Shown: positions 128 through 51,059 of the stretch, piece after piece
Numbering within the stretch: the first letter of the stretch is position 1
Layout: each line of letters starts with the position of its first letter
Source: a virus
DNA: 51,059 nt
Strand: one strand, 5' to 3'
IMG/VR virus record: IMGVR_UViG_3300025816_000004
The notes under the pieces: model-generated
Databases searched by the model: none
Told to the model about the DNA's origin: nothing
Seen by the model: only the letters and a program-made list of their open reading frames with translations
Made by a program: the position numbers and the translations under genes

Positions 128-178
128 TTGATTAATCCTCAACCTAAAAGTATGACAGATGACAGGATTTATTTCTAA
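1..178 (+). CDS. 3' end of a 255-aa virion protein whose 5' part is 50343..51059 (gene spans the circular junction); putative head-tail adaptor / tail-tubular-A-like
   Basis: Frame from ATG 50343 continues through the repeat and stops at TAA 176-178, overlapping the next ATG (TAATG); lies just downstream of the capsid genes. Confidence 0.6.
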   Translation, partial: DQYASVIMARTRYYVHQFKENLQQAAFALDDYKKGMKRMKSNLINPQPKSMTDDRIYF

Positions 179-5780: not shown

Positions 5781-5921
5781 ATGGCAGAGAATGAACTACA
5801 TACAGATCCAGATGAAATACAAAAACTTAACAGAAGACTTGCAGATTTTTGGGATATTATTTCAAAACGTCTAAAAGCAATAGAAGAAAAAATAGACGTT
5901 TTAGAAAAAAATGCCTCTTGA
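5781..5921 (+). CDS. Small hypothetical protein (46 aa, coiled-coil-like)
   Basis: ATG 5781 to TGA 5919-5921; overlaps the start of the next gene by 11 nt. Confidence 0.45.
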   Translation: MAENELHTDPDEIQKLNRRLADFWDIISKRLKAIEEKIDVLEKNAS

Positions 5922-6807
5922 AACATTAGCTTTTAATGATGTACTGAATAATGATATAGCTCATTTTTTTAAATCAGGAAATATCAGAAGATCAGAAGTA
6001 AATAAACAACTAGATAAGATACACCATTTGTTACCAACGAAAGGTAATCATGGAACAAATTTAGAATACGATATTTGGTATGATTTTAAAAATGAAAAGA
6101 AAATAAGAGGATATGTCTATACAGACATTATGACGAAGTTTGTTTATATTAAACCTGCTTCTTCTTTATATTCTTTAAAGCTTTTAAGAGAATGTGTAAG
6201 AGGAAAAATTACACAGGAAGGAGAAAAAATCTTTGACGCTATTGCTAATAAAAATGCAGATAAGTATAATTTACAAACTACAGATATAGATTATCCTTAT
6301 GTAGTTTTTTTAGCAGGTACAAATATTTTAAAAGAAATTACAGATGATGTTAAACTTTTAAAAGCTATAAAAGAAGAAGGTGCTAAATTAAAACCTCATC
6401 CTTTAACATCTCCTTTTACAATGTCTTTTTTAAAAGCAAAGTATGGTAAAGATTCTTTAGTAAATAAAAATCTATCAGGACATGAGATTTTAAATAGAGC
6501 AAAAGTTGTAGGATGTACTACTAATTCTGAAATGGGATTGATAGCTTTAGCACAAGGTAAGCGTGTTAATTTATTTGATAGACCTAAGATAGCTTGTAAA
6601 ACTTATACACATATCTATAAAGTTTTATTTGAACAAGGATATCCAGTAATAAATGATTTTAAAAGATTGTTATCAGCAACTAACTCTGGATTAATCTATC
6701 ATGCATCAGAACAACCTAAAGAAAATATAAAAAACTTTTTTCATTATTTTAATAAAGTAGAACATGTTAAACCTAACAGACCTAAAAGTCTTAATACTAG
6801 AAAGTAA
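5911..6807 (+). CDS. Hypothetical protein (298 aa)
   Basis: Long ORF in the late operon; no motif confidently recognised. Confidence 0.8.
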   Translation: MPLETLAFNDVLNNDIAHFFKSGNIRRSEVNKQLDKIHHLLPTKGNHGTNLEYDIWYDFKNEKKIRGYVYTDIMTKFVYIKPASSLYSLKLLRECVRGKITQEGEKIFDAIANKNADKYNLQTTDIDYPYVVFLAGTNILKEITDDVKLLKAIKEEGAKLKPHPLTSPFTMSFLKAKYGKDSLVNKNLSGHEILNRAKVVGCTTNSEMGLIALAQGKRVNLFDRPKIACKTYTHIYKVLFEQGYPVINDFKRLLSATNSGLIYHASEQPKENIKNFFHYFNKVEHVKPNRPKSLNTRK

Positions 6808-7504
6808 TAACTTAACTAATCTTACAGTTAACTCTTTAGAAAAAAATACTCCACAAGTATCTTATAAAGTAATAACTAAAAAAGAACAAACAAACAGTAG
6901 GATAGGTACAGCATTACTAAATACTAAAGGAATAACTTTAGTAGTTAAAAGCGGTATAGTTTTAGAATTAAAAGAAGGAGACATACCTTCTATAGAACAA
7001 TTAGAAGCTGTTGATATATGTGTAAGCAGAAAAGCAGTTTTTATAGATCACAATAGATTATCAGAGCATTATCGTTATGTAGATACTACATTGACAAACG
7101 GAGTTGTTGATTTAAATATTTTTATTATTAATCCTAAAAGATGGAAAGATGTTCCAGAAACAGATACTGGAATATTAAACGATGTTAAAAAATTATTTAT
7201 ACCTAGATACATGCATCACAAAAATGATATTTTATTACAAGAAGAAGCAACAGCAACAATAGATGCTTTTAACTATGGAGTTCTTGGAGAGCAAGCAAGT
7301 GTGTTTAATTATATAGATTGTATTGAAGCAGATACTATAAACATGTTAGAAACTTATGGTTATTGTTTTGATAAATTACTTCCTTATTTAAAAGGAATAC
7401 CTAAAAAAGAAAAAGAAAGAATTAAATTTTTAGCTAACAAAACAAATATTAAAATTAAAAATACTAGAGAAAAGATGCACCGTTTAAATATAGGAATAAC
7501 ATAA
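6764..7504 (+). CDS. Hypothetical protein (246 aa)
   Basis: Long ORF; 44-nt overlap with the upstream gene; no later in-frame ATG near the 5' end. Confidence 0.75.
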   Translation: MLNLTDLKVLILESNNLTNLTVNSLEKNTPQVSYKVITKKEQTNSRIGTALLNTKGITLVVKSGIVLELKEGDIPSIEQLEAVDICVSRKAVFIDHNRLSEHYRYVDTTLTNGVVDLNIFIINPKRWKDVPETDTGILNDVKKLFIPRYMHHKNDILLQEEATATIDAFNYGVLGEQASVFNYIDCIEADTINMLETYGYCFDKLLPYLKGIPKKEKERIKFLANKTNIKIKNTREKMHRLNIGIT

Positions 7505-14595: not shown

Positions 14596-17500
14596 ATGTC
14601 AATGACTTGGCAGCAATTTCAGCAAAACAATCCTAGTATGTTTAAAAATCTAGGTGAAACTCAAGAAGAAAAAGAAAGAAGACAAACTTTAGAAAATCAA
14701 GAAAAAACTTTTTCTGCTATAAAAATTTCAAATAACAGACCTGACTATACTGCTGTATCTGGATATAATGATTTTAGCAATACTGTAAATCAAGAAATAA
14801 ATCAGAAAAAAAATGTTTATGATGATCCTTTTATTCAAAGAATTTTAGATGATAATACATCTTCTAATTTAGATAGGGAAAGAAAACAGTCTGCTTCTTT
14901 TTATTCTGATACTGAATATAGTATGAATGATCTAGATCAAGATCAAGTATATCAAGAAGTAGGAGAAAGATATCTAAGAGCTATAGGTAGTGATGAAAAC
15001 TTATATGAAAATTTAAGAGATGCTAAATATAGTATAGGAGATGCTGTTGCTTTAGCAATGAAATCTGATAACTGGAGTGATCAAGTTAAAGCAGATTATA
15101 AATATTTAAAAACTGTTTTTGATAATTCTAATACAACAGGTGCAAAACATATTCTTCAAGCTACTAAAGATATTGCTATAGATCTTGTTTTTGATCTTCC
15201 TAATTTATTAGCTGTTCCGTTTATTGTATCTACTGGAGGAGTAGGAGGCATAGCTTTATCTGCTGCTTCTAGACTAGGAGCAACACAAGCCTTTAGACAA
15301 AGTGCTAAGAAGATGGCTCTACAATACAATAAAAATAAACCTTTAAGAACAGCAAGTATTGGTTTAACAGAAGGTGCTTATGATGCAGGAGTTATTGGTG
15401 TCTCTAATCAAATTAGTGATGTTCAAACTGGAATTAGAGAAAAATTTAGTACTCCAGAGGCTATAGGAATGACTGCAGTAGGTGCTGTAATTGGAGGCGG
15501 TGCTGCTGCAGGCTTAGTAAAATTAGGAGATGTTATAGCTAAAAGGCAATTAAATAAATTTGCAGAAGAAACAGGATTAAGAACAGAAGATATAGCTGAC
15601 GCTAAACCAGAACAAATTAAAAAATGGCGAGAAGATTTAAGAAAAACAGATAAAATTATAGGTGCTATTACAGGTAAAGCAACAACTCCTTTTAAAGAAT
15701 TTGCTAAAGGTTCTCCGACAATACAAGAATTTTTAACTAATATTAGATATGATGCTATGCGTAGGCTAATGGATAAAGGCCCTGAAGAAATAGCTAAAAC
15801 AACTTTTGGTGCTGCAGTATCTAAAAGACAAGCAGAGTATACTTTACTTATGCAGAAAGCAATGGGTAATCTTACTGGTTTAAACGGAAAGATTGATCCT
15901 GTAGATGAAGCAGATATTTTGTATTTATTAAGTAGAGATATAAATTTAAACAACCATGTAAAACTTGTAAAGTTTAATAAGAAAGGTCTTAATACCTATG
16001 AAGTTATTGAGCCTGTCATAATAGACGGAAGAAGAATGTCAGATGAAGTTATGAAAGCTGCTAAAGGTTTAGATGAAAGTTTTAATAAAATCTTTGAAGA
16101 CGGTTTTGGTATAGAAACAGTAGGCGGTACAGTATCTAAATTTGATTTATTTAAAAATATATCTCAAAGAGTAGCTAATTATTTTCCTAGACATTGGAGT
16201 ATAGATGCTATTAAAGAACAAAGAGATGTATTAGAAAATTTATTAATAAACTCTAGACACACAGATATGCGTTTAGAAAGAATGACTGATGAAGGAATTG
16301 AAGAATTAAATTTAGATGACGGTGTTACTAGATATACTATAGACTTTGATGCTGATGGTAAAATGATACCTGATAGTGTTGCTAGATTAGATGATGAAGC
16401 TAGAAAATTTGTTAATGTAAATGAACTTACTATAGATCAAAAAGTTTTTGGTGATGTAATTAATCCTAAAACTAACAAGCCTTATCTAGAAAGATACAAT
16501 GGTTTTGAAGATATGGCTTTAGAGTCTTTAAAGAAAAAATATAATCTAACTGATCTACAAGTAAATGTAAGTACTAAGAAAAATTTATTAGCTCTTAGAC
16601 CAGAGTTAGCAGATGAGTTTAATCTTGCAGCTAGAAAATTTAAAGCTCAAGTTATAGTGCAAGATTTAATTAATAAAGCTGATCCTAAATACAAAAATTT
16701 AAAAGGTAGTATGCCTAAACTTGGCAGTAATACTTTTATGAAAGAAAGAGCTTTTGATGATATTGCAGATACAGACTTACAAAAATATGGTTTTGTAAAT
16801 ACAGATGTTCAATCTGTAGTTACTGACTATGCTTTAAGTATGGGTAAAACTATAGAAAAAGCTAGATATTTTGGAAGAAGCGAAAGAGAATTTAATAAAA
16901 GATTTATTGAACCTATTATAGATGAGCTTGATGAATTTGGACAAAAATATAACAGAGAAGAGTTAGTAGATAACTTAACTAAACTGTATAAAGTAACTGC
17001 AGGAGTAGAGGATACTGTTCCTGCTTATGTAGGTAAGTTTGGTAGAAACGCAGTAGATGCTTTAAAGGTTTCACAGCAACTAGCTCACTTAGGTTTTGCT
17101 ACGGTGTCTAGTCTTACTGAACCTTTGATTGCTTTATCTAGAGCAGATTTACCAGACGCTATTAATTTAAGTAAATCGTTTGCTGTAGCAGGATCAAAAT
17201 TTGCAAAGAAAGCTTTTGTTACTGCAGGAGATCGCATTGCTAATCTAACAGGTAAAAGAACAAGACTCTTTAAACAATTAGATGATGAAGATTTATATGA
17301 TACTTATCAAGCAGGGTTGTCTTTAGAAAATTCTGTAATGGATAGAATTGAAGGTATGTATGGAGAAGGTTTGCAAAGCGGTACAGCAAAGAAAATTTCT
17401 AATTGGTTTTTTAATTTAAACGGACTAACTCCCTGGACACAAGCTGTTCAAATGGGAGCATATAAATTTGGACAACAAAAAGTACTTAGAATACTTAACG

Positions 17501-19539
17501 AATTAAACGATAATACCAATTTCTATGGAGTAACTTTGTCTCCTAAAATGAAACAAAGAAGAGTAGATCAATTAGCTGAAATAGGTATTGACAGTAATCA
17601 AGCTTTAATAGCTTATAAAAGTAATGTAGATGCTGATGGTATTTTTAATGAACAAGCTTTTAGAGATAGTACTTTTTTTGAAGAGCAAGTTTCTCCTGCT
17701 TCTGCTTTATTTGCTAGAGAAATTATTCTTAATCCTACAGCTGCAGAAGGAAGTAAACCTTTATGGATGAGTGGCTACTGGGCGCAACTATTTGTACAGT
17801 TTGCAGGTTATCCTACAGCATTTAATAATACAGTACTTAAAGGTATGGCAAGAAATATGGTAAGAGATCCTGTTGCTAATGTTCCTAAAATTATGGGAGC
17901 AACAACTATGATGACAGGGGTAGCTGTTATGACTAATGCTATTAGAAGTGAAGGCAGAAGTTTACAAGAAGAAGATAGTAAAGTTATGGGAGAAGCTATA
18001 AGAAGATGGGGTGGATTTGGGCCTTATGAATATATACATAAATATCTTGAAGGGGCTAAGTATGGCGGTAGAGAAACAGCTGCAGCAATTAAAGCTCCAT
18101 TAGGGCCTCTTCCTGCAGACCTTATAGATTCTGTAGTTACAGATAAAAGTATTCCTGAAATTCTTGGAACTAATATTCCTTTTTATTCTGCTCTTAAAAA
18201 GAATGAGAAAATTTTTGGAGTAATTCCTTCTAGAAATGATATTAAAAAATTTACTAGGAATTTAGGACAAGGAGTTGTATATGATAAAGATTCTGTAGAG
18301 TCTTTTGCAGAAGGTGGAGAAGTTACACAAAACAACAATAATATAACAGATGTTTATAAGTTTTTAACTAGAGATCAAAATGAATATGGAACTACAGACA
18401 CAACTCCTATTGCTTTGCATACAGAAGATACGTTACCTACATTAGATATTAAAGATACATTCTACATAGACTTAAAAGGCTTTACAGTTGCAGATAAACT
18501 AGAAGCATACCGCAAGTCAGATACTATTGGAGTTCCTGTATACAAAGCTAAAGGCAGAGGAAACGTAGCAGGTAAAATTAAATTTCATAAGTTATTAGAA
18601 TTAGATATTGATAATACAGAACTAGAAACTGTACAAGAAAGTATTAACAAAAATAAAGATGATATAATATATACAGATGATTTTATTGCTAATGAAATTA
18701 TTAAAGAAACAAACTATCAACTTACTCTTAGAGATGATGTTCTTAATGATGATCCTGATAGGACTGCTAATAAAGAAAAATTAATTACTAAAAGTAAAAG
18801 TTTTTTAATAAAGAATGAAATACTTAAACTAGGCTATGATGCTATAAAGACTAAAGAGGGCTATACATTACTTAGAGAGAACCAGTTTTTAGCTACAGAA
18901 ATACTAGATAGAAGACAACAAGTATTCTTAGGTGGTTTATTAAAAAGAGCTAGAGGATTTTTAGGCGCACTTTTAAGAAGAGCTAAAGGTGCAGCAAACA
19001 GGGCTGAAACAAAAATGGAAGATATACAATTTCAAACACAAGACGCTGTATTAATAGGAGGAGCTGCACAAGCTGTTCCTAGAACTTTAGTAACTGATGA
19101 AATAATATTACCTAAACTATTTAAAGATAAGTTAAGAGATAGTGAAAGCTCTGGAAATTATGAAGCTGTAAATAGTCTAGGATATATGGGTGCGTATCAA
19201 TTTGGTAAGAGTAGATTAAAAGATTACAAAGATAGATATAATACATCTTTTACTAATGAAGAATTTTTAGCAGATAAAAAATTACAAGATGAAGTATTTG
19301 ATTGGCATGTTAGTGATATTAGAAAAGGAATTAAAAGAAATAAACTGGATCAATATATTGGTCAAAAAATTAATGGAGTAGCTATTACAGAACCAGGAAT
19401 GGTTGGTGTTGCTCATTTAGGAGGCTTTACAGGTATGAAACAGTTTATTAGAAATTTAGGAGAAGGAGATAAGCAAGATGCTTATGGTACTAAACTTTCT
19501 GATTATCTAGATAAATTTAAAAATACTAGATTTGAGTAA
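14596..19539 (+). CDS. Giant internal virion protein (1647 aa) with a C-terminal lysozyme-like / lytic transglycosylase-like motif (T7 gp16 analogue)
   Basis: C-terminal motif DSESSGNYEAVNSLGYMGAYQFGKSRL (E-S-x-G-N ... G-x-Y-Q-F) typical of transglycosylase-like folds; internal hydrophobic Gly/Ala segments. Confidence 0.65.
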   Translation: MSMTWQQFQQNNPSMFKNLGETQEEKERRQTLENQEKTFSAIKISNNRPDYTAVSGYNDFSNTVNQEINQKKNVYDDPFIQRILDDNTSSNLDRERKQSASFYSDTEYSMNDLDQDQVYQEVGERYLRAIGSDENLYENLRDAKYSIGDAVALAMKSDNWSDQVKADYKYLKTVFDNSNTTGAKHILQATKDIAIDLVFDLPNLLAVPFIVSTGGVGGIALSAASRLGATQAFRQSAKKMALQYNKNKPLRTASIGLTEGAYDAGVIGVSNQISDVQTGIREKFSTPEAIGMTAVGAVIGGGAAAGLVKLGDVIAKRQLNKFAEETGLRTEDIADAKPEQIKKWREDLRKTDKIIGAITGKATTPFKEFAKGSPTIQEFLTNIRYDAMRRLMDKGPEEIAKTTFGAAVSKRQAEYTLLMQKAMGNLTGLNGKIDPVDEADILYLLSRDINLNNHVKLVKFNKKGLNTYEVIEPVIIDGRRMSDEVMKAAKGLDESFNKIFEDGFGIETVGGTVSKFDLFKNISQRVANYFPRHWSIDAIKEQRDVLENLLINSRHTDMRLERMTDEGIEELNLDDGVTRYTIDFDADGKMIPDSVARLDDEARKFVNVNELTIDQKVFGDVINPKTNKPYLERYNGFEDMALESLKKKYNLTDLQVNVSTKKNLLALRPELADEFNLAARKFKAQVIVQDLINKADPKYKNLKGSMPKLGSNTFMKERAFDDIADTDLQKYGFVNTDVQSVVTDYALSMGKTIEKARYFGRSEREFNKRFIEPIIDELDEFGQKYNREELVDNLTKLYKVTAGVEDTVPAYVGKFGRNAVDALKVSQQLAHLGFATVSSLTEPLIALSRADLPDAINLSKSFAVAGSKFAKKAFVTAGDRIANLTGKRTRLFKQLDDEDLYDTYQAGLSLENSVMDRIEGMYGEGLQSGTAKKISNWFFNLNGLTPWTQAVQMGAYKFGQQKVLRILNELNDNTNFYGVTLSPKMKQRRVDQLAEIGIDSNQALIAYKSNVDADGIFNEQAFRDSTFFEEQVSPASALFAREIILNPTAAEGSKPLWMSGYWAQLFVQFAGYPTAFNNTVLKGMARNMVRDPVANVPKIMGATTMMTGVAVMTNAIRSEGRSLQEEDSKVMGEAIRRWGGFGPYEYIHKYLEGAKYGGRETAAAIKAPLGPLPADLIDSVVTDKSIPEILGTNIPFYSALKKNEKIFGVIPSRNDIKKFTRNLGQGVVYDKDSVESFAEGGEVTQNNNNITDVYKFLTRDQNEYGTTDTTPIALHTEDTLPTLDIKDTFYIDLKGFTVADKLEAYRKSDTIGVPVYKAKGRGNVAGKIKFHKLLELDIDNTELETVQESINKNKDDIIYTDDFIANEIIKETNYQLTLRDDVLNDDPDRTANKEKLITKSKSFLIKNEILKLGYDAIKTKEGYTLLRENQFLATEILDRRQQVFLGGLLKRARGFLGALLRRAKGAANRAETKMEDIQFQTQDAVLIGGAAQAVPRTLVTDEIILPKLFKDKLRDSESSGNYEAVNSLGYMGAYQFGKSRLKDYKDRYNTSFTNEEFLADKKLQDEVFDWHVSDIRKGIKRNKLDQYIGQKINGVAITEPGMVGVAHLGGFTGMKQFIRNLGEGDKQDAYGTKLSDYLDKFKNTRFE

Positions 19540-19802: not shown

Positions 19803-20288
19803 ATGAAATTTGGAATGATAAAAAACTTAATAGGCGCAGTAGCTCCAACAATCGGTACAGCCCTGGGTGGGCCTATGGGCAATATGGCAGCTAATATGAT
19901 TGCTGAAACTTTAGGATGTGAGCCTACACCTAAGAAAATAGAGCAAGCAGTACAAGCAGCCACACCAGAACAACTTGCAGAGATTAAAAAGATTGATGCA
20001 GACTTTGAAGTAAAAATGAAAGAGTTAGATGTAGATCTATATGATCTTCAAACTAAAGACATACAAGATGCAAGAGGGAAATTTTCTAAAGATTGGACAT
20101 CTAGAATCATGGGATTAGTTGTTGTTGGTGGCTTTATGGGTTACATTTTTCTAATTACTCTGCAGCCTCCAGAGCAGAACAGCGAAGCGTTGATCAACTT
20201 AGTGCTAGGTTATCTTGGTGGTCTTGCAAGTGCTATTATATCTTTTTATTTTGGAGCGTCTAATACTGGAAGTAAAGACGATAAGTAA
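19803..20288 (+). CDS. Holin, 3-TM GTA-type holin-like (161 aa)
   Basis: Gly-rich N-terminal amphipathic segment, central helical linker, D-x-x-D-A-R then hydrophobic helices (IMGLVVVGGFMGYIFLI, LVLGYLGGLASAIISFYF); architecture of the 'holin of 3TMs' family. Confidence 0.5.
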   Translation: MKFGMIKNLIGAVAPTIGTALGGPMGNMAANMIAETLGCEPTPKKIEQAVQAATPEQLAEIKKIDADFEVKMKELDVDLYDLQTKDIQDARGKFSKDWTSRIMGLVVVGGFMGYIFLITLQPPEQNSEALINLVLGYLGGLASAIISFYFGASNTGSKDDK

Positions 20289-20638
20289 TGGAAGACATTA
20301 TAAATCTGATTAATCAGGTAGGCTTTCCAGTTGCATCTGCATTAGGTTTAGGTTTCTTTATATGGAAACTTATTAACCGCATTATTGATGGTATGGAAGC
20401 TAAGATAGATGTAGTTGATGAAAAAGTAGATGCTAGTCTTAACGCAATGGAAGAAAGACTAAGCACTAAACTTGATGCTCAATACGGAATAATTGTAGCT
20501 TTAATTGATAGGGTACGCGCACTTGATAATCAAACTATACGTCAAGATGTTTTACTAAAAACATTACTTGGTATTCCTAATTTAATTGAAATAGATAAGG
20601 TGGCAAAAGCAGACCGTGAAGATCAAAGAAAAGATTAA
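20288..20638 (+). CDS. N-terminally membrane-anchored coiled-coil protein (116 aa); i-spanin-like architecture
   Basis: TM helix (FPVASALGLGFFIWKLI) followed by a helical charged region; TAATG coupling to the holin. Confidence 0.5.
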   Translation: MEDIINLINQVGFPVASALGLGFFIWKLINRIIDGMEAKIDVVDEKVDASLNAMEERLSTKLDAQYGIIVALIDRVRALDNQTIRQDVLLKTLLGIPNLIEIDKVAKADREDQRKD

Positions 20639-21071
20639 AATTAACCTAATAGCTTTTTTTATTTGGCAAGGAGATATCTTTGCAGACGAATTGTTATTTA
20701 AATTTAAAAGTCCTAGCTTTTCTGGAGTAAATACTAGCAGTCACTATCTTACAATAGAGAACCAAGAAGCTACAAGAAAGCAAGCTATTAAAGAAGAGAT
20801 AGAAGCATATCAAGATCAGTTAGCTAGAGAAGCAGATAACACTACACTTGCAAGGTTTATAAGAAATTTAGAAAGCAGAATCTACGCACAATTATCTAGG
20901 CAAATGGTAGAACAATTATTTGGTGAGACACCACAAACATCAGGATCACTTGAGCTAGAAGGAAATACTATTGAATACAAAGTTGAAAATGAACTTATCA
21001 CGCTTACTATTACAGACGAAAATGGGGGGCAGACCAGTATTACTGTGCCTATTGGTACTTTTACTTTCTAG
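20616..21071 (+). CDS. csgF: CsgF-like curli assembly protein (151 aa, GTG start, Sec signal peptide)
   Basis: Signal peptide ..LIAFFIWQGDIFA; mature N-terminus ELLFKFKSPSFSG resembles E. coli CsgF TMTFQFRNPNFGG; C-terminal ITLTITDENGGQTSITVP resembles LQLNVTDRKTGQTSTIQV (recalled from memory). Confidence 0.7.
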   Translation: MKIKEKIKINLIAFFIWQGDIFADELLFKFKSPSFSGVNTSSHYLTIENQEATRKQAIKEEIEAYQDQLAREADNTTLARFIRNLESRIYAQLSRQMVEQLFGETPQTSGSLELEGNTIEYKVENELITLTITDENGGQTSITVPIGTFTF

Positions 21072-21831
21072 TTGTGCATCTAAAGATTTATTAAACGGAA
21101 GCGGTATACCTAATGTTGTAATAAAAAGTTCTTCTGTATTAGAACTACAGTCTGAAGAATTAAAACAACTTCCTGCAGCAATACGAAAACCAGTAATAGC
21201 TATATACCCTAATAGCTTTAGAGATCACACAGGACAGCGCAGAAGTAATGGGCAGTTTGCCTTGTTCAGTACTGCAATTACGCAGGCCCCTGAAGCATTT
21301 CTTATCAGAGCTTTAAAACAAGCTGCAAAGGGAAAGTTTTTTCAAGTTGCAGAGCGCGTAGGATTAGATTCACTTACTAAAGAAAGACAACTTATACGTT
21401 CAACAAGAGAAACATTTGAAGAGGACAGCAGCGTCAAACCTCTTTTACTAGCAGGACTCTTGATTCAGGGAGGAGTGTTATCGTATGATTCTAATATAAA
21501 ATCTGGAGGCGCAGGAGCAAGACTGTTAGGTCTAGGAAGTTCTAAACAGTATAGAGAAGATTTAATTACCATATCTTTGAGATTAGTTTCTGTCTCAACA
21601 GGAGAAATATTAATAGAAGTATTAGTATCTAAAACAGTTACATCAGCAGGTCTTTCGCAGGATGTGTTTAGATTTTTAGATGAAGGCAGAAGACTTATTG
21701 AAGTAGAAGGAGGAGTTGCAGAGAACGAAAGTACCTCTATAGCTCTACAACAGGCAATAGAAGAAGGTGTTTTACAAATAATTAAAATAGGAATAACCAG
21801 GGGGTATTGGGAATATGAAGAAATTAATTAG
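21022..21831 (+). CDS. csgG: CsgG-like outer-membrane lipoprotein / curli secretion channel (269 aa)
   Basis: Lipobox LLSS|C. YDSNIKSGGAGARLLGLGSSKQYREDLITISLRLVSVSTGEIL resembles E. coli CsgG YESNVKSGGVGARYFGIGADTQYQLDQIAVNLRVVNVSTGEIL. Also DVFRFLD vs GVFRFID and ITRGYWEY vs IDRGLWDL. Confidence 0.88.
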   Translation: MGGRPVLLCLLVLLLSSCASKDLLNGSGIPNVVIKSSSVLELQSEELKQLPAAIRKPVIAIYPNSFRDHTGQRRSNGQFALFSTAITQAPEAFLIRALKQAAKGKFFQVAERVGLDSLTKERQLIRSTRETFEEDSSVKPLLLAGLLIQGGVLSYDSNIKSGGAGARLLGLGSSKQYREDLITISLRLVSVSTGEILIEVLVSKTVTSAGLSQDVFRFLDEGRRLIEVEGGVAENESTSIALQQAIEEGVLQIIKIGITRGYWEYEEIN

Positions 21832-22522
21832 CTTGTTAATGCTTGTTAGCATTTCCGCAACAGCTTCAGACAACGAAATCTTTGTAGATCAAGTAGGAGC
21901 TACAGCTAATATAGATCTTGAACAGTTAGGTAGTGGTAACATTATAGGTGGTCTTACTGCAGTAGCAGGTTCAATGACAGCCTTGGATCTTGACGGAACA
22001 TCCATGACGTTAGACATAAATCAGATTGGTGATGCTAACAAATTTCTAGGAGATATGTATGCAGATTCATACACAGGTTACTTTAATTTTGATGGCGATA
22101 CTAACACGTTCACATCTAAAATGGATCCAACCAATTCGTTTGGTGCAGATGGTTCAAACGTTAATGTCCAAGTGACAGGTAGTACCAACACCTTTACACT
22201 TGATCTAGCTACTAGTGCTTTAGCAAGTAGCGCAGATATAGATTGGACTGTGCAAGGTTCTAGTAATACTATTAATGCTGACATTGATGTGGATTCAGCT
22301 ACTAATTATATGAATATAGATGGCGATAGTAATACAGTAAATTATGATGGAGATGGTTATGCCCAGGGATATTTTCACCTTACACACACAGGAAGTTCAA
22401 GAGCCTTTGATGTGGATCAACAAAGCACACAAGATTCAGATTGGGTTAAAGTTACTTCTACTGGTTCTAACGGTACAGTTTGCATTAACCAAGACGATCA
22501 AGGCACAAGCGTTGGATGTTAA
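21815..22522 (+). CDS. Secreted curlin-repeat-like protein (235 aa), candidate fibre subunit (CsgA/CsgB analogue)
   Basis: Signal peptide MKKLISLLMLVSISATA|SD; about 8-9 imperfect repeats with a h-x-h-x-(Q/D)-x-G-x-x-N core (VDQVGATAN, EQLGSGN, INQIGDAN, VQVTGSTN, TVQGSSN, NIDGDSN); directly downstream of csgG. Confidence 0.5.
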   Translation: MKKLISLLMLVSISATASDNEIFVDQVGATANIDLEQLGSGNIIGGLTAVAGSMTALDLDGTSMTLDINQIGDANKFLGDMYADSYTGYFNFDGDTNTFTSKMDPTNSFGADGSNVNVQVTGSTNTFTLDLATSALASSADIDWTVQGSSNTINADIDVDSATNYMNIDGDSNTVNYDGDGYAQGYFHLTHTGSSRAFDVDQQSTQDSDWVKVTSTGSNGTVCINQDDQGTSVGC

Positions 22523-23540
22523 TATTGGAAACATTACACAATTAAACGGAAATACCAGAGTAGTAAGAGATAAACCTTATAAGAGCGAGATTGATTTCTC
22601 GCTTAACTCTATGGACAAACTAGAAACTGCACAAGGTAGAATGGGTGTTACGTTTAGAGATGATACAACAATACGTTTAACAGAACACAGCAATGTGATT
22701 ATTGATGAGTTTGTATTTGATGTCAATCCTAGCAAGTCAAGTATGGCTCTTAATTTTGTAAAAGGAACCGGGAGATTTATATCCAGTAAGAAGCCACGCA
22801 TACCTAAAGATAATATTACAATCAGGACACACGCGGCAACCATTGGAATAAGGGGGACAGACTTCACAATAACTGTAAAAGAAACTGGTGAAGCTTTGGT
22901 AATACTTTTGCCTGATGAGTTTGGTAATGCAAGTGGGGAGATAACTGTTGATACGGCCTTAGGTCAGGTAATACTTAACAAAGCTTATGAGGCTACTACA
23001 GTCTATAATTTTGAAACAGCACCTACTCCTGCTGTAGTATTAGACCTAACACTAGATATGATTGACAATATGCTTATTGTAAATCCTCCAGAGACTAAAG
23101 AGATTCAAACAGATGAATCAGTTACTGCTGTAGATAATCTATTAGATGTAGACTTTTTAGAGTTTGATGGACTTGAAGAAGATGCTTTAGCTAAAGATGA
23201 TTTAGAATATACAGAGCTTGATGTAGATTATTTGGCAGGTAACTTTCTAGAAGATCTCTTAGACATTATTCAAGAAGTAGATGAGTTAGGTAAAGCTGAG
23301 AAAGCTTTGTCAGCAGACGGAGTTAAAGGAACAGCAGTAGGTTATGATAAGGATACGCAGATCAGTACCTTTGTTACTGACACAAACTTAAAGTTCTTAA
23401 GAGCTATAGAAGATACACTAGAGATGAGCGTAGACAAATCAGGTTCTTACAATATAAGAATAGAACAAGAAGGAAAAGTAAATCAAATAACTACCAACGG
23501 AGGGAGTAGTTCTACTATTACTATTAAACAAGGAAGTTAA
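22410..23540 (+). CDS. Secreted FecR-domain protein with an acidic C-terminal half (376 aa)
   Basis: NGNTRVVRDKPY..LNSMDKLETAQGRMGVTFRDDTTIRLTEHSNVIIDEF fits the FecR beta-domain pattern. ATG 22410 gives a signal-peptide-like N-terminus (..LLLLVLTVQFALTKTIKAQA|LD). The start is uncertain (alternative TTG near 22514). Confidence 0.55.
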   Translation: MWINKAHKIQIGLKLLLLVLTVQFALTKTIKAQALDVNIGNITQLNGNTRVVRDKPYKSEIDFSLNSMDKLETAQGRMGVTFRDDTTIRLTEHSNVIIDEFVFDVNPSKSSMALNFVKGTGRFISSKKPRIPKDNITIRTHAATIGIRGTDFTITVKETGEALVILLPDEFGNASGEITVDTALGQVILNKAYEATTVYNFETAPTPAVVLDLTLDMIDNMLIVNPPETKEIQTDESVTAVDNLLDVDFLEFDGLEEDALAKDDLEYTELDVDYLAGNFLEDLLDIIQEVDELGKAEKALSADGVKGTAVGYDKDTQISTFVTDTNLKFLRAIEDTLEMSVDKSGSYNIRIEQEGKVNQITTNGGSSSTITIKQGS

Positions 23541-24232
23541 AAATTATAAAAGTTTCTATTTATAGGCACTATATTTTTTTCTTCTAATAAAGGAACAGAT
23601 ATAGATATTCTTTTAGATAAGGGTATAGCAGAATGGCCTATTCCTTTTGGAATGTAAAGCATATCTCCTGCAGTTAATTTAAAAGTTTCTACATCTTTTG
23701 TATTGTTTTCAAAACTATTACAGACTGTCCATTGTACTGAGCCAATGCAATGTACAAGAAAATTATCATCATGATCTATATGTGGGCGAAAAGATTTTCC
23801 TTTAGAGTTTCTACTACAATAAAAATGAGCATCACATGCGCCTTTAAACTCTGTCTCTATAGCTTCTGCTATATCTGAAATACTTTGAGTAAGCATAGAT
23901 GCTTTAGTTAGTATAATAGATCCATTGTTATTCCAAAGAGTATGTAAATATTTTTTATCAAAGTAATCTTTTTTAGCCCATGAAGTTTTAGATCCTTGAT
24001 AAAGATTATTTTTTTCCATACAAAGTTTTTTACCATTGGGTAGTATAGCTTGTATGCCTGCTACTGCTCTATCATTATTAATGTAATCAGAAAGTCTATG
24101 CCAAGAAATAATATTACTGTACATAAATCTTCTAAATCTATTTCCTTTAATAACACAGAATTTTTTATCTTTATATTCTGTTTTAAATTCCTCAACAGAC
24201 ATAGGATCAATTAAACTTTTAAAGTCTATCAC
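23537..24232 (-). CDS. JmjC/cupin-type 2-oxoglutarate-Fe(II) oxygenase (231 aa)
   Basis: H-x-D ... H triad: RPHIDHDDNFLVHCIGSVQW ... DMLYIPKGIGHSAIP. Confidence 0.6.
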   Translation of the reverse strand: MIDFKSLIDPMSVEEFKTEYKDKKFCVIKGNRFRRFMYSNIISWHRLSDYINNDRAVAGIQAILPNGKKLCMEKNNLYQGSKTSWAKKDYFDKKYLHTLWNNNGSIILTKASMLTQSISDIAEAIETEFKGACDAHFYCSRNSKGKSFRPHIDHDDNFLVHCIGSVQWTVCNSFENNTKDVETFKLTAGDMLYIPKGIGHSAIPLSKRISISVPLLEEKNIVPINRNFYNF

Positions 24233-24459
24233 TATGCTTTTCGCCCATTTAAATCCGCTTCTATTTTATTATGTACATTATCTAATTCTCTGGTCGCGCT
24301 TCGCATTGTGGACTGTAACAGGTTAAAATCTTCTTTAGTTAAATGTTTTTTTAATTGTGTAATGTCTGTACTTGTACGTTCAGTAATTAACTGTCCTTGT
24401 TTATTAAACAAAATTGCATACGCTAACAACTTTGCTTCTTCCCTTTTTATTCTTGCCAT
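24232..24459 (-). CDS. Hypothetical protein (75 aa)
   Basis: ORF tightly coupled between RNR and the oxygenase (ATGA/TAATG-type junctions). Confidence 0.7.
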   Translation of the reverse strand: MARIKREEAKLLAYAILFNKQGQLITERTSTDITQLKKHLTKEDFNLLQSTMRSATRELDNVHNKIEADLNGRKA

Positions 24460-26378
24460 TAAATTATCTCACAAGTTCCTGCACTACATGCAAGCTCTTT
24501 AGTATTTTCAGTATTATCTTCTGTCTCATACTCTGTTATCTTAGACCAATCTACTATGTCTGTAGTTTTCTTTAACCATTTTCTATATTCATTATAAGTT
24601 ATCTCTTGATAAGGAGCTTGTTTATATGAATGATCTGAGTAAGGTAAGAAAGAGATACCAGATGTTTCATCTAGATTTTTATAAACCCAAGCTCCTACAT
24701 CTAATTGTTCTTCTTCTTTAACTGAGATTGTTACAGAAGGTTTATGCTCACACCATTTATCTTGATAGTCCTTCCAGATATTTAAGTGTTCAATAGCTGA
24801 TATATCTTTTCTAGTCAGCGCACCTTTAGGACTCTTCATAGGAAAGTAAAAGACATAAGTGTGTTCTGGTTTAGTAAGATCATCTTCATGATAGACTCCT
24901 GCATCTACCATTAATTTTGCTAAAGGATCTTTCTTATCTGCTCTGACGGTGCGAAGGTAGTATGGGCTATGTCTAGTGTGAATACCAGAAGCACTATTGA
25001 CCAGTTGACTTACTGTTCCGCTAGGTTTAACGCAGGTAATTGCTGCGGATTGGGGGATACCTAGTTTCTTAGCCCATACTTTATTAACGGATATTGACAG
25101 ATCTTTTAACTCTTGTAAATCTATCTTGCCATTTATCATATTAACATTGTCCATTATACCTGTAAGTGATACACCAAGCAATGACTCTTCTAAAGTATTG
25201 TGTTTCCATTTACTTGTCAGGTATCTAAAATTTGTTAGCGTAGCCTGGAATGTACCAAGTATAGTCGCTGCTTCTGTTTTAGTTTTTAAAGTATTAATAT
25301 CATCATCTTCTCTAACTACAACCTCAGTAAGATTACAGAATTGTTTATTGCGTAGAATAATTTCACTACAAGGATTACAACCAAAGTCTTTATAGTCTTC
25401 TCGCCTACCATTCTTTGATGCTTGTTTCTCTGCAGCTTGACGATTAAAGATACCACGCTCACCACTTTTAGATTCATACAAAGATAACCATTCACGCATA
25501 AAAGTACCTACGTCTGGTTTTTCTGTATAGGCTACAGAGTTATTAGCTAATGCTCTTTGCTGATTATCTTCCCACCAAGCACCTGACTTAGCATTACGCA
25601 TGCGACTGTCTGAGAGATTGCTAAGAGAGATTAAAGCACTTCGCCTTACTCCACCTACCACTACAACTTCTGCAATCTTACACATCAAATCATGACAGTT
25701 TAATGAATGAAGTTTTCTTTGTTGTTTCTCCATTGCATCTTTAAAAATATTAATAGTAAAATCAAACAACTCTTCAAGAGGATCTGGGCCACTTGCTCTG
25801 CCTCCAAAAGTTTTAAGTCTAGCACCATAAGGTCTAATGTTTGAAACATCCCATGTAGGAATCTGTCCTGCATATAGTAAAGACATAAGTTCTTTGTAGG
25901 ACTTTGCCCATCCAATCTTAGAATCAGCTACTTTAATAACAGTATCTGTAGGAAATAAATCCTCTGGTAAATCTGGTAATTGATTTATGTATTGACGTTC
26001 AACGCTAAACCCTACCCCTGTACCACACATAAGTATGTATAATGTTTCATCAAAAGCTCTAGGTGTATCAACAGCTACATAGCTACAGTTAAATCCTGCT
26101 ACGTTATCTTTTTCTAAAGCATTACCTGCTGACATCAATGCTCTCATACTTGGCATAACATCTAATGACAACACAGCTTTTTGTAATGTAGATCTAATTA
26201 CAGCATAGTCAACTTTATTTAATTTAGTATTTTGTACTATTTGTTTTCCAAAAAAATCAAAGTATCTTGTTACAGTTTCTTCCCAAGTTTCTCTACGTTG
26301 ATGTTCTTCATTCCATCTAGCATATCTGCTTAGATGTATAAACTGTTGATAGTTAGTAGGTAGTTCAGTAGTGTTCAT
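24459..26378 (-). CDS. nrdJ: Class II (adenosylcobalamin-dependent) ribonucleotide reductase (639 aa)
   Basis: NCSYVAVDTPRAFDETLYILMCGTGVGFSVE; active-site GCNPCSEIILRNKQFCNLTEV; C-terminal redox pair CSAGTCEII. Confidence 0.85.
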   Translation of the reverse strand: MNTTELPTNYQQFIHLSRYARWNEEHQRRETWEETVTRYFDFFGKQIVQNTKLNKVDYAVIRSTLQKAVLSLDVMPSMRALMSAGNALEKDNVAGFNCSYVAVDTPRAFDETLYILMCGTGVGFSVERQYINQLPDLPEDLFPTDTVIKVADSKIGWAKSYKELMSLLYAGQIPTWDVSNIRPYGARLKTFGGRASGPDPLEELFDFTINIFKDAMEKQQRKLHSLNCHDLMCKIAEVVVVGGVRRSALISLSNLSDSRMRNAKSGAWWEDNQQRALANNSVAYTEKPDVGTFMREWLSLYESKSGERGIFNRQAAEKQASKNGRREDYKDFGCNPCSEIILRNKQFCNLTEVVVREDDDINTLKTKTEAATILGTFQATLTNFRYLTSKWKHNTLEESLLGVSLTGIMDNVNMINGKIDLQELKDLSISVNKVWAKKLGIPQSAAITCVKPSGTVSQLVNSASGIHTRHSPYYLRTVRADKKDPLAKLMVDAGVYHEDDLTKPEHTYVFYFPMKSPKGALTRKDISAIEHLNIWKDYQDKWCEHKPSVTISVKEEEQLDVGAWVYKNLDETSGISFLPYSDHSYKQAPYQEITYNEYRKWLKKTTDIVDWSKITEYETEDNTENTKELACSAGTCEII

Positions 26379-26818
26379 TTGTATTCCTTTCCAATTTCAT
26401 TGTAATATAATTTTTTAAAGTTAATATCTTGTATTAAAGAAACAGGTAAAGAAGTTAACCCTGTGATTGTAGAAACATATTGTCTTGCATAAGGAAATAT
26501 TATGTTAGGACAATCTACAGCCAATGCTTCATCTATTTCTTCTTGCTTTGTATAATTTTTAAGACTAAAAAATCCTGAGTAAATAAAGTTTAATATGTAT
26601 AAAATTTTATTGTATGTTTTATCTTTAGCTATAAGTTCTAAAGCTAAAGTTATTTCATAGTTATCTTCATTGTTAATTTCAAAAGAAGAAAAAGAAGATG
26701 TACAATTCAATTCAGTAACTACTTCATTAGAAGTATTAAAAAAAATGTCAGGACTCTCTGGTATTTCAAGACTGCTTTCTTTTAAAAAAATTGCTTTTAT
26801 ATTTATCTCATTACTCAT
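26375..26818 (-). CDS. secB: SecB-like protein-export chaperone (147 aa)
   Basis: [23 protein letters not shown] vs E. coli SecB [61 protein letters not shown] vs [38 protein letters not shown] (recalled). Confidence 0.8.
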   Translation of the reverse strand: [147 protein letters not shown]

Positions 26819-27105
26819 AAGCTAAATGCCTGTGCTATTTGATAAGTTAATAATAAAAATATTGTAGAAGATAACATTAAAAATATAACAGGCATAAGAG
26901 CATCCCATAGTTTTACTTCTACTTCTAATGTTCCTTCTGTTCCGTTTACTGTAATTTGAAATGTAAGATAAGCAAAACATATTAAACTTTGTGTTAATGC
27001 AAGACCTGACATAATTAATGCTGCTCTTATATCTGCACTCCATATAAAGTATGATCCTATTACCATACCAAAGAAAGGTATCATGTATAATAATCTACTT
27101 AGCAT
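26815..27105 (-). CDS. Small integral membrane protein (96 aa, about 3 TM)
   Basis: Three hydrophobic helices; coupled to the secB-like gene. Confidence 0.75.
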   Translation of the reverse strand: MLSRLLYMIPFFGMVIGSYFIWSADIRAALIMSGLALTQSLICFAYLTFQITVNGTEGTLEVEVKLWDALMPVIFLMLSSTIFLLLTYQIAQAFSL

Positions 27106-48499: not shown

Positions 48500-49489
48500 A
48501 TGGCTTATAACCAATCAGATCAGTTCTTTGAACCAAGTACTGATACTAACGCTAACTTTGCAAACTCCGTAAGTGGTCAGACTAATTCGTTTTTCCTTCC
48601 TTCAGTCTACTCTAAAAAGGTTCTTAACTTCTTTAGAAAGGCTTCGGTTGTAGAAGCGATCACCAACACAGATTATGCAGGTGAGTTGTCCGCTTATGGA
48701 GATTCTGTAAAGATTATAAAAGAACCTGAAATCACTGTATACCAGTATGAACGTGGTGCAGATGTTACAGACACTAAACTAACTGATCAAGAGTTAACGC
48801 TTGTAGTTGATACAGCTAACGCTTTTAAATTCAAAGTTGATGACATTGAAACAGCTATGTCTCATGTGAATTTTAAAGAAGTAGCTAGCTCATCTGCAGC
48901 ATACGCTCTTAGAGATGCTTATGATGAAGGTGTTATTGCTACTATGTTCGCAGGTGTTTCTGCCTCAAGTCCTAACCATATTCTTGGTTCTGACAACGCT
49001 ACTGATTTAGCGGCAGGTACATTTGATGGAACTGGTAATCTTGACATAGGTTTTGCATCAAGTGAACATGATCCTATTGACGTACTATCACACATGGCAC
49101 GTTTAATGGATGAGCAGAACATACCAGAAGAAGGAAGATGGTTCTTAGCATCACCTGACTTCTATGAAGTTCTTGCAAGTTCATCTTCAAAACTTTTGTC
49201 TGTTGATTATAATGCAGGACAAGGTTCTATAAGAAATGGTCTAGTAACTTCTGGTAAGTTGCGTGGATTCAGCATGTACAAGTCTAACAACATTGCAGAT
49301 ACAACTAACGCTGCAGGAAAATGTATCGCAGGCCACATGTCATCTACAGCTACTGCTCAGACGATTACAAGTACTGAAGTATTGCGTGATCCTGATAGCT
49401 TTGGCGATATAGTGCGAGGTCTTCATGTATATGGAGCTAAAGTACTACGCGGTGAAGCATTAGTTTCTGCTTTCTACGGTATTGACTAA
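48500..49489 (+). CDS. Major capsid protein (329 aa)
   Basis: Position after scaffold, size, strong SD (ACGGAGAAG), followed by a strong terminator. Confidence 0.75.
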   Translation: MAYNQSDQFFEPSTDTNANFANSVSGQTNSFFLPSVYSKKVLNFFRKASVVEAITNTDYAGELSAYGDSVKIIKEPEITVYQYERGADVTDTKLTDQELTLVVDTANAFKFKVDDIETAMSHVNFKEVASSSAAYALRDAYDEGVIATMFAGVSASSPNHILGSDNATDLAAGTFDGTGNLDIGFASSEHDPIDVLSHMARLMDEQNIPEEGRWFLASPDFYEVLASSSSKLLSVDYNAGQGSIRNGLVTSGKLRGFSMYKSNNIADTTNAAGKCIAGHMSSTATAQTITSTEVLRDPDSFGDIVRGLHVYGAKVLRGEALVSAFYGID

Positions 49490-49497
49490 ACAGATTT

Positions 49498-49521
49498 GGG
49501 AGGTGTAAAAGCCTCCCTTTT
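49498..49521 (+). terminator. Rho-independent terminator after the capsid gene
   Basis: GGGAGGtgtaaaagCCTCCCTTTT. Confidence 0.75.
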
Positions 49522-49585
49522 CTACTTTTTAGAGTATAAATTTTATTAATATTAACTTATCTTTTAAAGATAAAGGAGACACAAA

Positions 49586-50173
49586 ATGTCAAACCCAGTA
49601 TTTAAAGTAAGAGATACAGGGCGCAACTCAGCTAGAACAGTTGATGTTGGGAAAATTGCTGACAATATCTGTACTTCATGGACTTCAGCTACAACAGGAA
49701 CTATTGCAGTTACTGCTAATGCTACTTATGATGTTTCATTTACTCAGCCTGCTGACACTATTATAAGAAATCTTATTGCCATACCTGCAGGTAACATTGT
49801 TACAGCAGGAGCTTCAGGTGATGATGTTGATTTTGATTTAGGTACTGCAGCAGGTGGTGGTCAAATTATTGATGAAAAAGCTATCTTAGATGATGGTGGA
49901 TCAGCAGTAACTTGGACAGCAAACGCACCCTTGTATATTATTCAAAACTCACATGGACATGCCGCTAACGCTTTTGTAGGTACAGGAGTAACAGCAGGTG
50001 TTGTTGGAGGCCCTGCAACTTCAGAAGCTATTGTTATAGCCTCTACGTTGTATAGTGCCGCAGCTAGAACACTTCATGCTCGCCTTAAGCCTCTAGCAAA
50101 CAACTTAGCAACAGCCGCTACAACTGTTACTTATTTAGTAGAGTTTTTACATCTTGGCTCAACCCCAGATTAA
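49586..50173 (+). CDS. Hypothetical structural protein (195 aa), possible capsid decoration/minor head protein
   Basis: Strong SD AAAGGAGA; Ala/Thr/Gly-rich beta-type composition; function inferred from position only. Confidence 0.55.
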   Translation: MSNPVFKVRDTGRNSARTVDVGKIADNICTSWTSATTGTIAVTANATYDVSFTQPADTIIRNLIAIPAGNIVTAGASGDDVDFDLGTAAGGGQIIDEKAILDDGGSAVTWTANAPLYIIQNSHGHAANAFVGTGVTAGVVGGPATSEAIVIASTLYSAAARTLHARLKPLANNLATAATTVTYLVEFLHLGSTPD

Positions 50174-50175
50174 AA

Positions 50176-50343
50176 ATGCCACAGTTAGGTAATGACAAAA
50201 ATCCTATGATCCTAAATGGCTCTAGTAAGCCCAAAAGCACTAGAGTCTTAGGATTGTTAGGTAGCGCATATTCTGGTGAAGCAAAGAAAAAATATGCAGA
50301 TAACTATGATCGCATATTTGGTAAAAAGAAAAAGGGTAACTAA
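50176..50343 (+). CDS. Small basic protein (55 aa)
   Basis: ATG 50176 to TAA 50341-50343, TAATG coupling to the next gene; below the track cutoff. Confidence 0.5.
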   Translation: MPQLGNDKNPMILNGSSKPKSTRVLGLLGSAYSGEAKKKYADNYDRIFGKKKKGN

Positions 50344-51059
50344 TGGCTACAACATATTTAACACTTACTAACGAAGTTCTTAGAGAATTAAATGAAGTAC
50401 AATTAACTTCTGCAAATTTTTCAAGTTCTGTAGGAATACAAGCTTTTGTAAGAGAAGCAATTAATAGAGCGTTAAATGACATAGCTAATGAAGAACCTCA
50501 ATTACCTTTCTTTGCTGCCGCAGCTAGCGGAGAAACAGATCCTTTTTACGGTAATGTAACTGTAGCAACCGTAGCAGGAACAAGATGGTACACACTTAAA
50601 GCAGGAAGCTCTAGTATAACTACTGATTATTCTTCTATAGATTGGGATGATTTTTATATTACAACAATTAGTGTATCAGGAGAATCCGCACCCTATGTAT
50701 CTAAAGGTTTAAGATTTATATCTTTAACAGATTGGAGAAGATATTTAAGAGATCAAGAAAACGCAGATGATGCAGATACTCAGAATCATGGAGAGCCTCA
50801 GTTTGTTATTCGTAGTCCAGACCATAGAAAATTTGGTCTTAGTCCTATCCCAGACAAAGTATACAATGTTCATTTCTATGCTTACTCTGCACCTACAGAA
50901 CTTTCTGCTCATGGAGATACTATAGTCTTTCCAGATCAATATGCTTCTGTAATCATGGCTAGAACAAGATACTACGTTCATCAGTTTAAAGAAAACTTAC
51001 AACAAGCAGCTTTTGCATTAGATGATTATAAGAAAGGTATGAAACGTATGAAATCTAAT
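50343..51059 (+). CDS. 5' part of the junction-spanning 255-aa virion protein (continues at 128..178 after removing the duplicated 127 nt)
   Basis: ATG 50343; open to the end of the window; in frame with 2..178. Confidence 0.6.
   Translation, partial: MATTYLTLTNEVLRELNEVQLTSANFSSSVGIQAFVREAINRALNDIANEEPQLPFFAAAASGETDPFYGNVTVATVAGTRWYTLKAGSSSITTDYSSIDWDDFYITTISVSGESAPYVSKGLRFISLTDWRRYLRDQENADDADTQNHGEPQFVIRSPDHRKFGLSPIPDKVYNVHFYAYSAPTELSAHGDTIVFPDQYASVIMARTRYYVHQFKENLQQAAFALDDYKKGMKRMKSN
50933..51059. repeat. Terminal direct repeat, copy 2 (identical to 1..127)
   Basis: Same 127-nt string as the window start. Confidence 0.95.

Follow-up and report, generated by a model that had tools for sequence, protein, structure and literature searches.

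What does a gene for a SecB-like export chaperone do in a lytic-type marine phage? The question is raised by IMG/VR record IMGVR_UViG_3300025816_000004, a viral DNA of 51,059 nucleotides (the window, meaning the whole stretch analysed), in which such a gene occupies positions 26375..26818 of the minus strand. We regard it as settled that the gene belongs to a phage lineage, encodes a chaperone of SecB fold and is under selection. For its role, the best explanation, held at a rough probability of 0.4, is the default function of the family: the phage would supply a holdase, independent of ATP, by which its secretory precursors are kept competent for export. The gene had been picked out in a sequence-only reading, made by a model from the letters and the open reading frames (ORFs) without database searches, and several proposals of that reading are taken up below. 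The two features on which the assignment turns are:

26375..26818, minus strand: SecB-like gene, 147 aa, ATG start (ORF list and Pfam PF02556)
26483..26512, minus strand: codons of the conserved CPNI(I/L)FPYAR-type segment, residues 103-112, at the start of helix alpha1

Profile search confirms the SecB annotation proposed by the sequence-only reading. Pfam SecB (PF02556) matches the 147-aa product at 94 bits (E = 1e-26; gathering cutoff 26) and does so end to end, with residues 3-142 aligned to model positions 6-138 of 141, far beyond chance. The conserved SecB segment that had been claimed is indeed present at residues 103-112; these ten residues are nearly invariant within the phage clade described below and are conserved in cellular SecBs too. 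A profile of the window SecB and its relatives matches the Escherichia coli and Haemophilus influenzae SecBs of the PDB (E ~1e-17). An AlphaFold2 model of the monomer, built on 16 relatives, has a predicted local distance difference test (pLDDT) score of 88.7 and consists of strands beta1-4 (residues 4-18, 33-48, 51-66 and 71-87), a long helix alpha1 (92-120) and a short C-terminal helix alpha2 (134-142). The top Foldseek matches of this model are canonical SecBs (1fx3, 1ozb and 1qyn; TM-score 0.78-0.90, E ~1e-11), with Rv1957, a chaperone of a toxin-antitoxin-chaperone (TAC) system, behind them (TM-score 0.65-0.75). Pairwise ratios of nonsynonymous to synonymous substitution (dN/dS) between the window secB and its relatives are 0.07-0.28, similar to those of the adjacent reductase gene (0.09-0.11), and by this measure secB is under purifying selection. 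A promoter and terminator scan around secB found fewer sites than in shuffled sequence and is thus uninformative.

The nearest relatives of the window protein come from phage-like marine contigs. A word-indexed search returned ~50 clusters (90% identity) of relatives that are 38-99% identical, all from marine metagenomes. Among the 3,281 SecB relatives found in an exhaustive HMMER search of 1.84 billion representatives, only three (P0030, P0133 and P0134) score at least 140 bits; these belong to the phage clade, and the next score is at most 101 bits. A neighbour-joining tree that includes 145 other SecBs recovers the clade as monophyletic, with a bootstrap of 80%, rising to 98.5% when its two most divergent members are left out, and no clear cellular sister group is seen among those 145. 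All the genomic contexts inspected around clade members are phage-like. The best cellular SecBs listed are at most ~36% identical to the window protein, and canonical SecBs of the E. coli/H. influenzae type are ~25% identical. As judged from these comparisons, the clade is a SecB lineage that circulates among marine phages, namely podoviruses akin to Pelagibacter phages as well as at least one T4-like myovirus contig. The score gap (at least 140 against at most 101 bits) further suggests that the window secB was probably not copied from a host gene in recent times, in a comparison set without a labelled Pelagibacter (SAR11) SecB. Contrary to the sequence-only reading, secB itself gives no hint of the host: the gene is not host-like.

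Some apparent relatives were set aside. P0140 was considered as a host-type SecB and dropped, its relatives being Rickettsiales, and an apparent closeness to betaproteobacterial SecBs is not relied on, as it is partly an artefact of word-based retrieval through the shared 10-residue segment. One IMG/VR contig carries a SecB (L157:9965-10444; relatives are given here by locus number) that is 27% identical to the window protein. It has no other gene in common with the window, and its ORFs overlap in the manner typical of high-GC DNA. This contig is probably a piece of bacterial or prophage DNA without relation to the marine clade. A tblastn search of SecB against a phage collection gave only matches of ~25% identity, several of them to records that are really bacterial (e.g., Salmonella assemblies), and window-type secB was found in none of the cultured phages.

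Within this phage group, the gene changes place. Loci with secB fall into at least six genomic arrangements, in which TM96 denotes the 96-aa membrane protein encoded upstream of secB in the window, RNR a ribonucleotide reductase, p75 a 75-aa protein and JmjC a cupin-type oxygenase-like protein:

Arrangement A (window, L001-4, L014-20): DUF3310-TM96-SecB-RNR-p75-JmjC
Arrangement B (L005-12): homologues of 5911..7504, SecB, a holin-like gene, lysozyme, further genes, CsgF-CsgG
Variant of B (L013): SecB, a Succ_CoA_lig-like gene, small genes, CsgF-CsgG
Arrangement C (L053, L145, L147-150, L154/155, L164): the same structural genes, then SecB-JmjC-Succ_CoA_lig-SNase...CsgF-CsgG-FecR
Arrangement D (L151/152): DUF3310-SecB-TM96
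Arrangement E (L159-161, L169): Cpn10...RNR-p78-SecB-p202-JmjC, convergent with the structural genes
Arrangement F (L156/158): a T4-like myovirus contig, secB beside an LtfC-like gene and neck, gp15, terminase and sheath genes

Read together, these arrangements indicate that secB is a mobile accessory gene that landed at several sites in related genomes. The SecB of the myovirus contig (L156:301-732, the same as L158) is a clade member, 42% identical to the window protein, so the clade has crossed between podoviruses and myoviruses. A crossing of the same kind was reported earlier for genes of the curli-type (type VIII) secretion system, or T8SS. The SecB variant of arrangement E (P0285) is the most abundant, with >65 contigs, and P0285-type SecB was not found in IMG/VR. 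In the same arrangement, a Cpn10/GroES-like co-chaperonin is encoded 3.5 kb upstream of SecB (L159:6196-6516; also L160 and L161), which fits phages that add chaperone capacity; the replication module of this phage type thus contains two chaperone genes of host type.

What might such a chaperone act on? The window encodes a curli-type module at the end of its structural operon, with the following products:

20616..21071, plus strand: CsgF-like protein, candidate client (Pfam PF10614, E = 2.3e-18)
20971..21831, plus strand: CsgG-like outer-membrane lipoprotein, candidate client (Pfam PF03783, E = 1.8e-45; lipobox LLSSC)
21815..22522, plus strand: secreted N/G/D/T-rich repeat protein (curlin-like) with a signal peptide, candidate client
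22344..23540, plus strand: FecR-domain protein with an N-terminal membrane anchor (Pfam PF04773, E = 7.2e-11; hydrophobic residues 30-52)

The curlin-like protein begins with MKKLISLLMLVSISATA/SD followed by repeat-rich sequence, and it has no Pfam family above cutoff. The listed CsgG ORF has a TTG start and overlaps the CsgF gene by 100 nt (20971..21071); since the lipoprotein signal (MNLSRLLL...LLSSC) does not begin until a few codons further on, translation probably starts at the downstream ATG. The FecR gene is the last of the T8SS block, with which the structural operon ends, and is convergent with the JmjC gene. The block thus holds at least four Sec-dependent phage products (CsgF-like, CsgG-like, curlin-like and FecR-like), as the sequence-only reading had maintained; the CsgG lipobox, the curlin-like signal peptide, the FecR-like signal anchor and the CsgF gene itself bear this out.

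In the export role, SecB would be made during infection together with the DNA-metabolism genes and would bind new phage precursors that cross the inner membrane, namely the CsgF-like protein, the CsgG-like lipoprotein, the curlin-like repeat protein and the FecR-like protein. It would keep them unfolded and soluble until host SecA/SecYEG exports them, and so would add to the limited chaperone capacity that a streamlined host has. The oligomeric state of the phage SecB, its holdase activity, the identity of its clients and its docking to SecA are points that we infer. This role is favoured because the phage makes at least four Sec-dependent products, because CsgF has been reported as a substrate of SecB in E. 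coli (PMC6123696) and because a streamlined host perhaps has little spare chaperone capacity. A boost to the export of curli-module proteins, one of two ideas in the sequence-only reading, is a plausible proposal. The gene and the module also share genomes. All secB contigs of arrangements A-C that are long enough to judge carry CsgF, CsgG and FecR (window, L014/15, L018/19, L005, L011, L013/51, L053, L145, L147 and L155/166, together with IMGVR_UViG_3300038825_001103, through L054 and L164). In several contigs, secB is the first gene of an accessory island that holds the T8SS genes on the same strand. Scans with peptide patterns had pointed to long CsgG-bearing contigs without secB, which proved wrong for at least one: contig 3300038825_001103 has a secB that adjoins JmjC. 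As the scans missed that SecB (L164/L223), absence calls based on them are unreliable; pattern scans miss SecB variants, and no claim of secB absence is made for any whole genome.

A series of observations weighs against the export role. In E. coli, deletion of secB leaves curli unaffected, and SecB does not keep CsgA soluble (PMC6123696). The host lineage has a SecB of its own, as seen in the Undatipelagibacter pangenome (bioRxiv 10.64898/2026.07.03.736256). Among 79 loci without secB at the site of arrangement A, 62 still show CsgG, CsgF or FecR; nearly all sampled relatives carry the T8SS, and the association of secB with it is therefore weak evidence. In arrangement E (L159-type), no CsgG, CsgF or FecR gene lies within 10 kb on either side of secB. 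The most recurrent neighbour of secB is the JmjC gene and not a gene for a secreted protein. All seven NCBIfam SecB equivalogs (TIGR00809, NF004390-4 and NF009590) score below their cutoffs, the best being NF004392 (87.6 against 143) and TIGR00809 (82.8 against 102.8). Finally, the position of E. coli E77 is acidic in none of 19 clade members (Asn in 16, Ser in two, Thr in one), as opposed to Glu or Asp in 118 of 145 cellular SecBs, and the long flexible C-terminal tail, equivalent to residues 143-155 of E. coli, is missing from the clade.

The last two points concern docking to SecA, which in E. coli involves a patch of D20, E24 and E77, plus L75 (PMC4257090, PMC6377645). Substitution of D20, E24, L75 or E77, or deletion of residues 143-155, impairs the interaction of E. 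coli SecB with SecA, and the same mutants still support the SecA-independent secretion of HasA (PMC4257090). In the phage clade, the positions of D20 and E24 are each Glu in 16 of 19 members, and that of L75 is I, T, V or N. A median of 12 residues follows the conserved Phe of the C-terminal NF motif, 12 in the window protein as well, compared with a cellular median of 20; a check for the SecA-binding tail, suggested in the sequence-only reading, therefore found it absent. In its place, the clade has a short conserved ending of its own, ELYYxEIGKEYK. The TAC chaperone Rv1957 has all three docking residues changed (R, A, D) and complements poorly (PMC6377645). By these residues, the phage clade would stand between canonical SecB and Rv1957, and docking to SecA is possible but uncertain.

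These changes raise the alternative of a dedicated chaperone that works without SecA: the SecB body would have been re-purposed for a single cytoplasmic client, in analogy to SecB with HasA and its type I secretion system (T1SS) or to TAC chaperones with their antitoxin. The partner would be either the JmjC oxygenase or virion and tail proteins encoded by adjoining genes. This main rival, a serious one that we place on the unlikely side, draws on the clade-wide loss of an acidic residue at E77, the short tail and the distinct ending, and on the precedent of HasA secretion. Where virion proteins are concerned, secB often follows immediately on the last structural genes (those homologous to 5911..7504), in the myovirus contig it lies beside LtfC-like and neck genes, and SecB-like chaperones have been found to bind tail and capsid proteins of phages (bioRxiv 10.1101/2024.02.24.581848). 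Against it, two of the three acidic docking residues are conserved as Glu, which counts for the export role.

The other candidate partner is the oxygenase. In the window, its gene lies two genes from secB:

23537..24232, minus strand: JmjC_2 gene (cupin, 2-oxoglutarate (2OG)-Fe(II) oxygenase-like; Pfam PF08007, E = 2.9e-11)
24232..24459, minus strand: 75-aa protein between the RNR and JmjC genes, kept after RNR in relatives (phrog_27180, no function annotated)

Residues H151, D153 and H200 of the JmjC protein are invariant, in agreement with the HxD...H metal-binding motif expected for the 2OG-Fe(II) oxygenase class. In relatives, the gene is found at L145:10447-11145, L147:10453-11148, L149:7979-8695, L150:9087-9803 and 12435-13133, and L159:10999-11703. 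SecB and JmjC genes are adjacent or overlapping in L053, L145, L147, L149, L154/155 and L164 and are separated by one gene in L159; in L150, two divergent pairs of these genes stand in tandem (45% and 68% identity). After deduplication, eight genome types have both genes, six have SecB alone, none has JmjC alone and 65 have neither, and secB lies within 3 kb in all seven of the low-GC JmjC loci for which the upstream sequence is covered. From this distribution, secB and JmjC seem to travel together in this phage group.

For a dedicated chaperone, the adjacent or overlapping pairs in six locus groups, the tandem pairs of L150 and the lack of genome types with JmjC alone are points in favour; SecB might present an unfolded substrate to the oxygenase or stabilise the enzyme. 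Against it, JmjC homologues occur without secB in 45 marine phage loci with GC contents of 0.38-0.53, so that the oxygenase does not need SecB, and several secB genomes (the L005, L011 and L013 types, and L015) have no nearby JmjC. Moreover, the loci lack phylogenetic independence, and secB and JmjC alike sit in hot spots of accessory genes. A more specific version, which we rate as improbable, is that secB and JmjC form a mobile two-gene unit of SAR11-type phages, in which a non-docking SecB would hold a protein for hydroxylation or stabilise the oxygenase. The held protein might then come from the host, as a ribosomal or envelope protein, or from the phage, and such a unit, if real, would modify proteins with the aid of a chaperone, a kind of system that is not known from cells.

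On its other side, secB abuts the gene for a small membrane protein, and the sequence-only reading had coupled the two as a pair. The genes that flank secB are:

26815..27105, minus strand: 96-aa predicted membrane protein with three transmembrane (3-TM) segments, ATG start (ORF and Kyte-Doolittle hydropathy)
24459..26378, minus strand: class II (B12-type) RNR (Pfam RNR-II_ins_dom, Ribonuc_red_lgC and RNR_Alpha)

Kyte-Doolittle hydropathy gives the 96-aa protein three hydrophobic stretches (about residues 5-22, 28-49 and 66-92), which makes the 3-TM description plausible, and profile searches gave no family match; weak Hemotin and antiporter matches were dismissed as noise. The physical overlap of the two genes is real: the start of secB overlaps the 96-aa gene by 4 nt (ATGA). 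A functional pair, in which SecB would chaperone the 3-TM protein or be tethered by it, could also appeal to gene order, kept as TM96-SecB in the window type (L001-4, L014-20) and reversed, as DUF3310-SecB-TM96, in L151/152. However, the stop of secB overlaps the start of RNR by 4 nt in the same ATGA manner, and the overlap is therefore the normal packing of this genome rather than a special link. Among 144 related loci retrieved around SecB, CsgG and RNR homologues, the 96-aa gene is followed directly by RNR without secB in 79 loci (39 deduplicated genome types), and secB lies between them in 13 loci (seven genome types). In L080:1487-2014 and L072:7602-8153 (the contig behind L038/L072), the slot of secB holds a Cys-rich, HNH-endonuclease-like gene of similar size. 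With secB, an HNH-like gene or nothing in the slot, the junction of the 96-aa gene and RNR is a hot spot for the insertion of accessory or mobile genes. In other architectures, secB lies without such a neighbour. By this comparison, the 96-aa gene is a conserved resident of the replication module and not a partner of secB; the coupling is incidental, the pair is largely refuted, and we give it almost no credence.

The remaining proposal of the sequence-only reading was a defence against host TAC systems. The phage SecB would act as a decoy that soaks up phage structural proteins which would otherwise titrate the TAC chaperone, or it would stabilise the host antitoxin. The mechanism has a basis in the literature, in that TAC systems sense phage through tail or capsid proteins that compete with the antitoxin for the SecB-like chaperone (bioRxiv 10.1101/2024.02.24.581848), and the window protein weakly matches the PADLOC profile of the CmdTAC chaperone (PD-T4-9_C, 35.7 bits). 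Yet the protein is nearer to canonical SecB than to TAC chaperones in sequence (94 against 36 bits) and in structure (TM-score 0.78-0.90 against 0.65-0.75). No toxin or antitoxin neighbours of secB were found in the window or in any related context inspected; a ChAD-bearing gene is likewise lacking nearby, and the neighbours have no PADLOC matches. A decoy is thus very doubtful, and the anti-TAC proposal is left with almost no support.

The wider genome is that of a marine phage related to phages that infect SAR11. A minus-strand, T7-like replication block encodes primase-helicase, family A DNA polymerase, endonuclease VII, a PD-(D/E)XK protein and endonuclease I and continues with DUF3310, the 96-aa protein, SecB, RNR, the 75-aa protein and JmjC_2, so that the phage setting assumed for secB stands. 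By DNA polymerase, the closest cultured phages are the Pelagibacter phages HTVC103P, HTVC104P and HTVC115P, at only 50% aa identity, and a megablast search of cultured phages with 20 kb of window sequence gave no match. The earlier guess of an AT-rich marine alphaproteobacterium as host is supported by this polymerase relationship. The window is a T8SS-bearing pelagiphage of the kind described in PMC9599517. In relatives (L219:1-3855 and L220:366-4576), homologues of its end genes (48500..51059) directly precede homologues of its first genes (1..1785), for which reason the 51,059-bp window resembles the whole of a circularly permuted phage genome in which secB occurs once.

Three other plus-strand products deserve mention. 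The 161-aa protein of 19803..20288, called a GTA-type holin in the sequence-only reading, has a Gly-rich N-terminus and two C-terminal hydrophobic segments and matches only phrog_1544 (no function annotated); in relatives its gene adjoins a phage lysozyme gene, which fits a role in lysis. The 1647-aa protein of 14596..19539 has PHROG matches to endolysin, virion structural protein and baseplate hub/tail lysozyme and is probably an internal virion or ejection protein. The 990-aa protein of 1789..4761 is highly repetitive, with many shadow-ORF cross-matches.

A SecB in a phage is not without precedent. A 2014 review mentioned, without dwelling on it, that there are secB-like genes "in certain phages and plasmids" (PMC4257090), TAC chaperones are often carried by prophages, and PHROGs holds two families that match SecB weakly and have no annotated function. 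A secB gene is not mentioned in the text and two supplementary files of the auxiliary-gene survey of PMC9599517, and literature searches gave no description of a SecB clade that is solitary and canonical-like and occurs in marine phages of lytic type alone. What appears new, and was not found described, is a clade-wide change of a SecA-docking residue, a distinct C-terminus, insertion at multiple sites and the link to JmjC. SAR11 bacteria are the most abundant marine bacteria, and their phages are known to carry a curli-type secretion system that is absent from the host. For the export and assembly of curli-type proteins in such a minimal host, a SecB lineage owned by phages gives a clonable handle. 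If the phage SecB docks to SecA and aids export of the CsgF/CsgG type, viruses would reinforce a secretion pathway of their host. If it does not, it would represent a third functional class of SecB, after export and the control of toxin-antitoxin systems.

Known systems resemble the phage SecB in different respects. Phage-borne general chaperones (GroES-like gp31 of T4, the DnaJ-like protein of RB43 and heat-shock proteins of large aquatic phages) are likewise host-type chaperones supplied by a phage, whereas they belong to other families, and the papers on them report no phage SecB. TAC chaperones (Rv1957 of Mycobacterium tuberculosis, 5MTW; HigC and CmdC of E. coli prophages) share the SecB fold and an altered SecA-docking surface (PMC6377645) and are often carried by mobile elements or prophages (bioRxiv 10.1101/2024.02.24.581848). 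The window gene differs from them in that it has no adjacent toxin-antitoxin genes or ChAD-bearing antitoxin, matches them more weakly than canonical SecB and keeps two of the three acidic docking residues, where Rv1957 has R, A and D. Serratia offers a precedent for SecB as an anti-folding factor without SecA docking, in HasA secretion by a T1SS (PMC4257090), and Francisella offers one for extra SecB copies, SecB1 and SecB2, linked to biofilm or surface factors (PMC4257090). Both are cellular genes with known clients, in contrast to the viral gene of the window, whose clients are candidates only. Canonical solitary SecB (E. coli 1QYN/5JTL; H. influenzae 1FX3/1OZB) has the same Pfam family, fold and CPNI(I/L)FPYAR segment as the window protein, a similar size and net negative charge, and a KDxSxE-like motif in strand 1 with acidic residues at E. 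coli positions 20 and 24. The window protein departs from it in being ~25% identical, below the NCBIfam cutoffs, with Asn in place of Glu77 and without the long tail, and its gene is phage-encoded, changes site and belongs to a separate clade.

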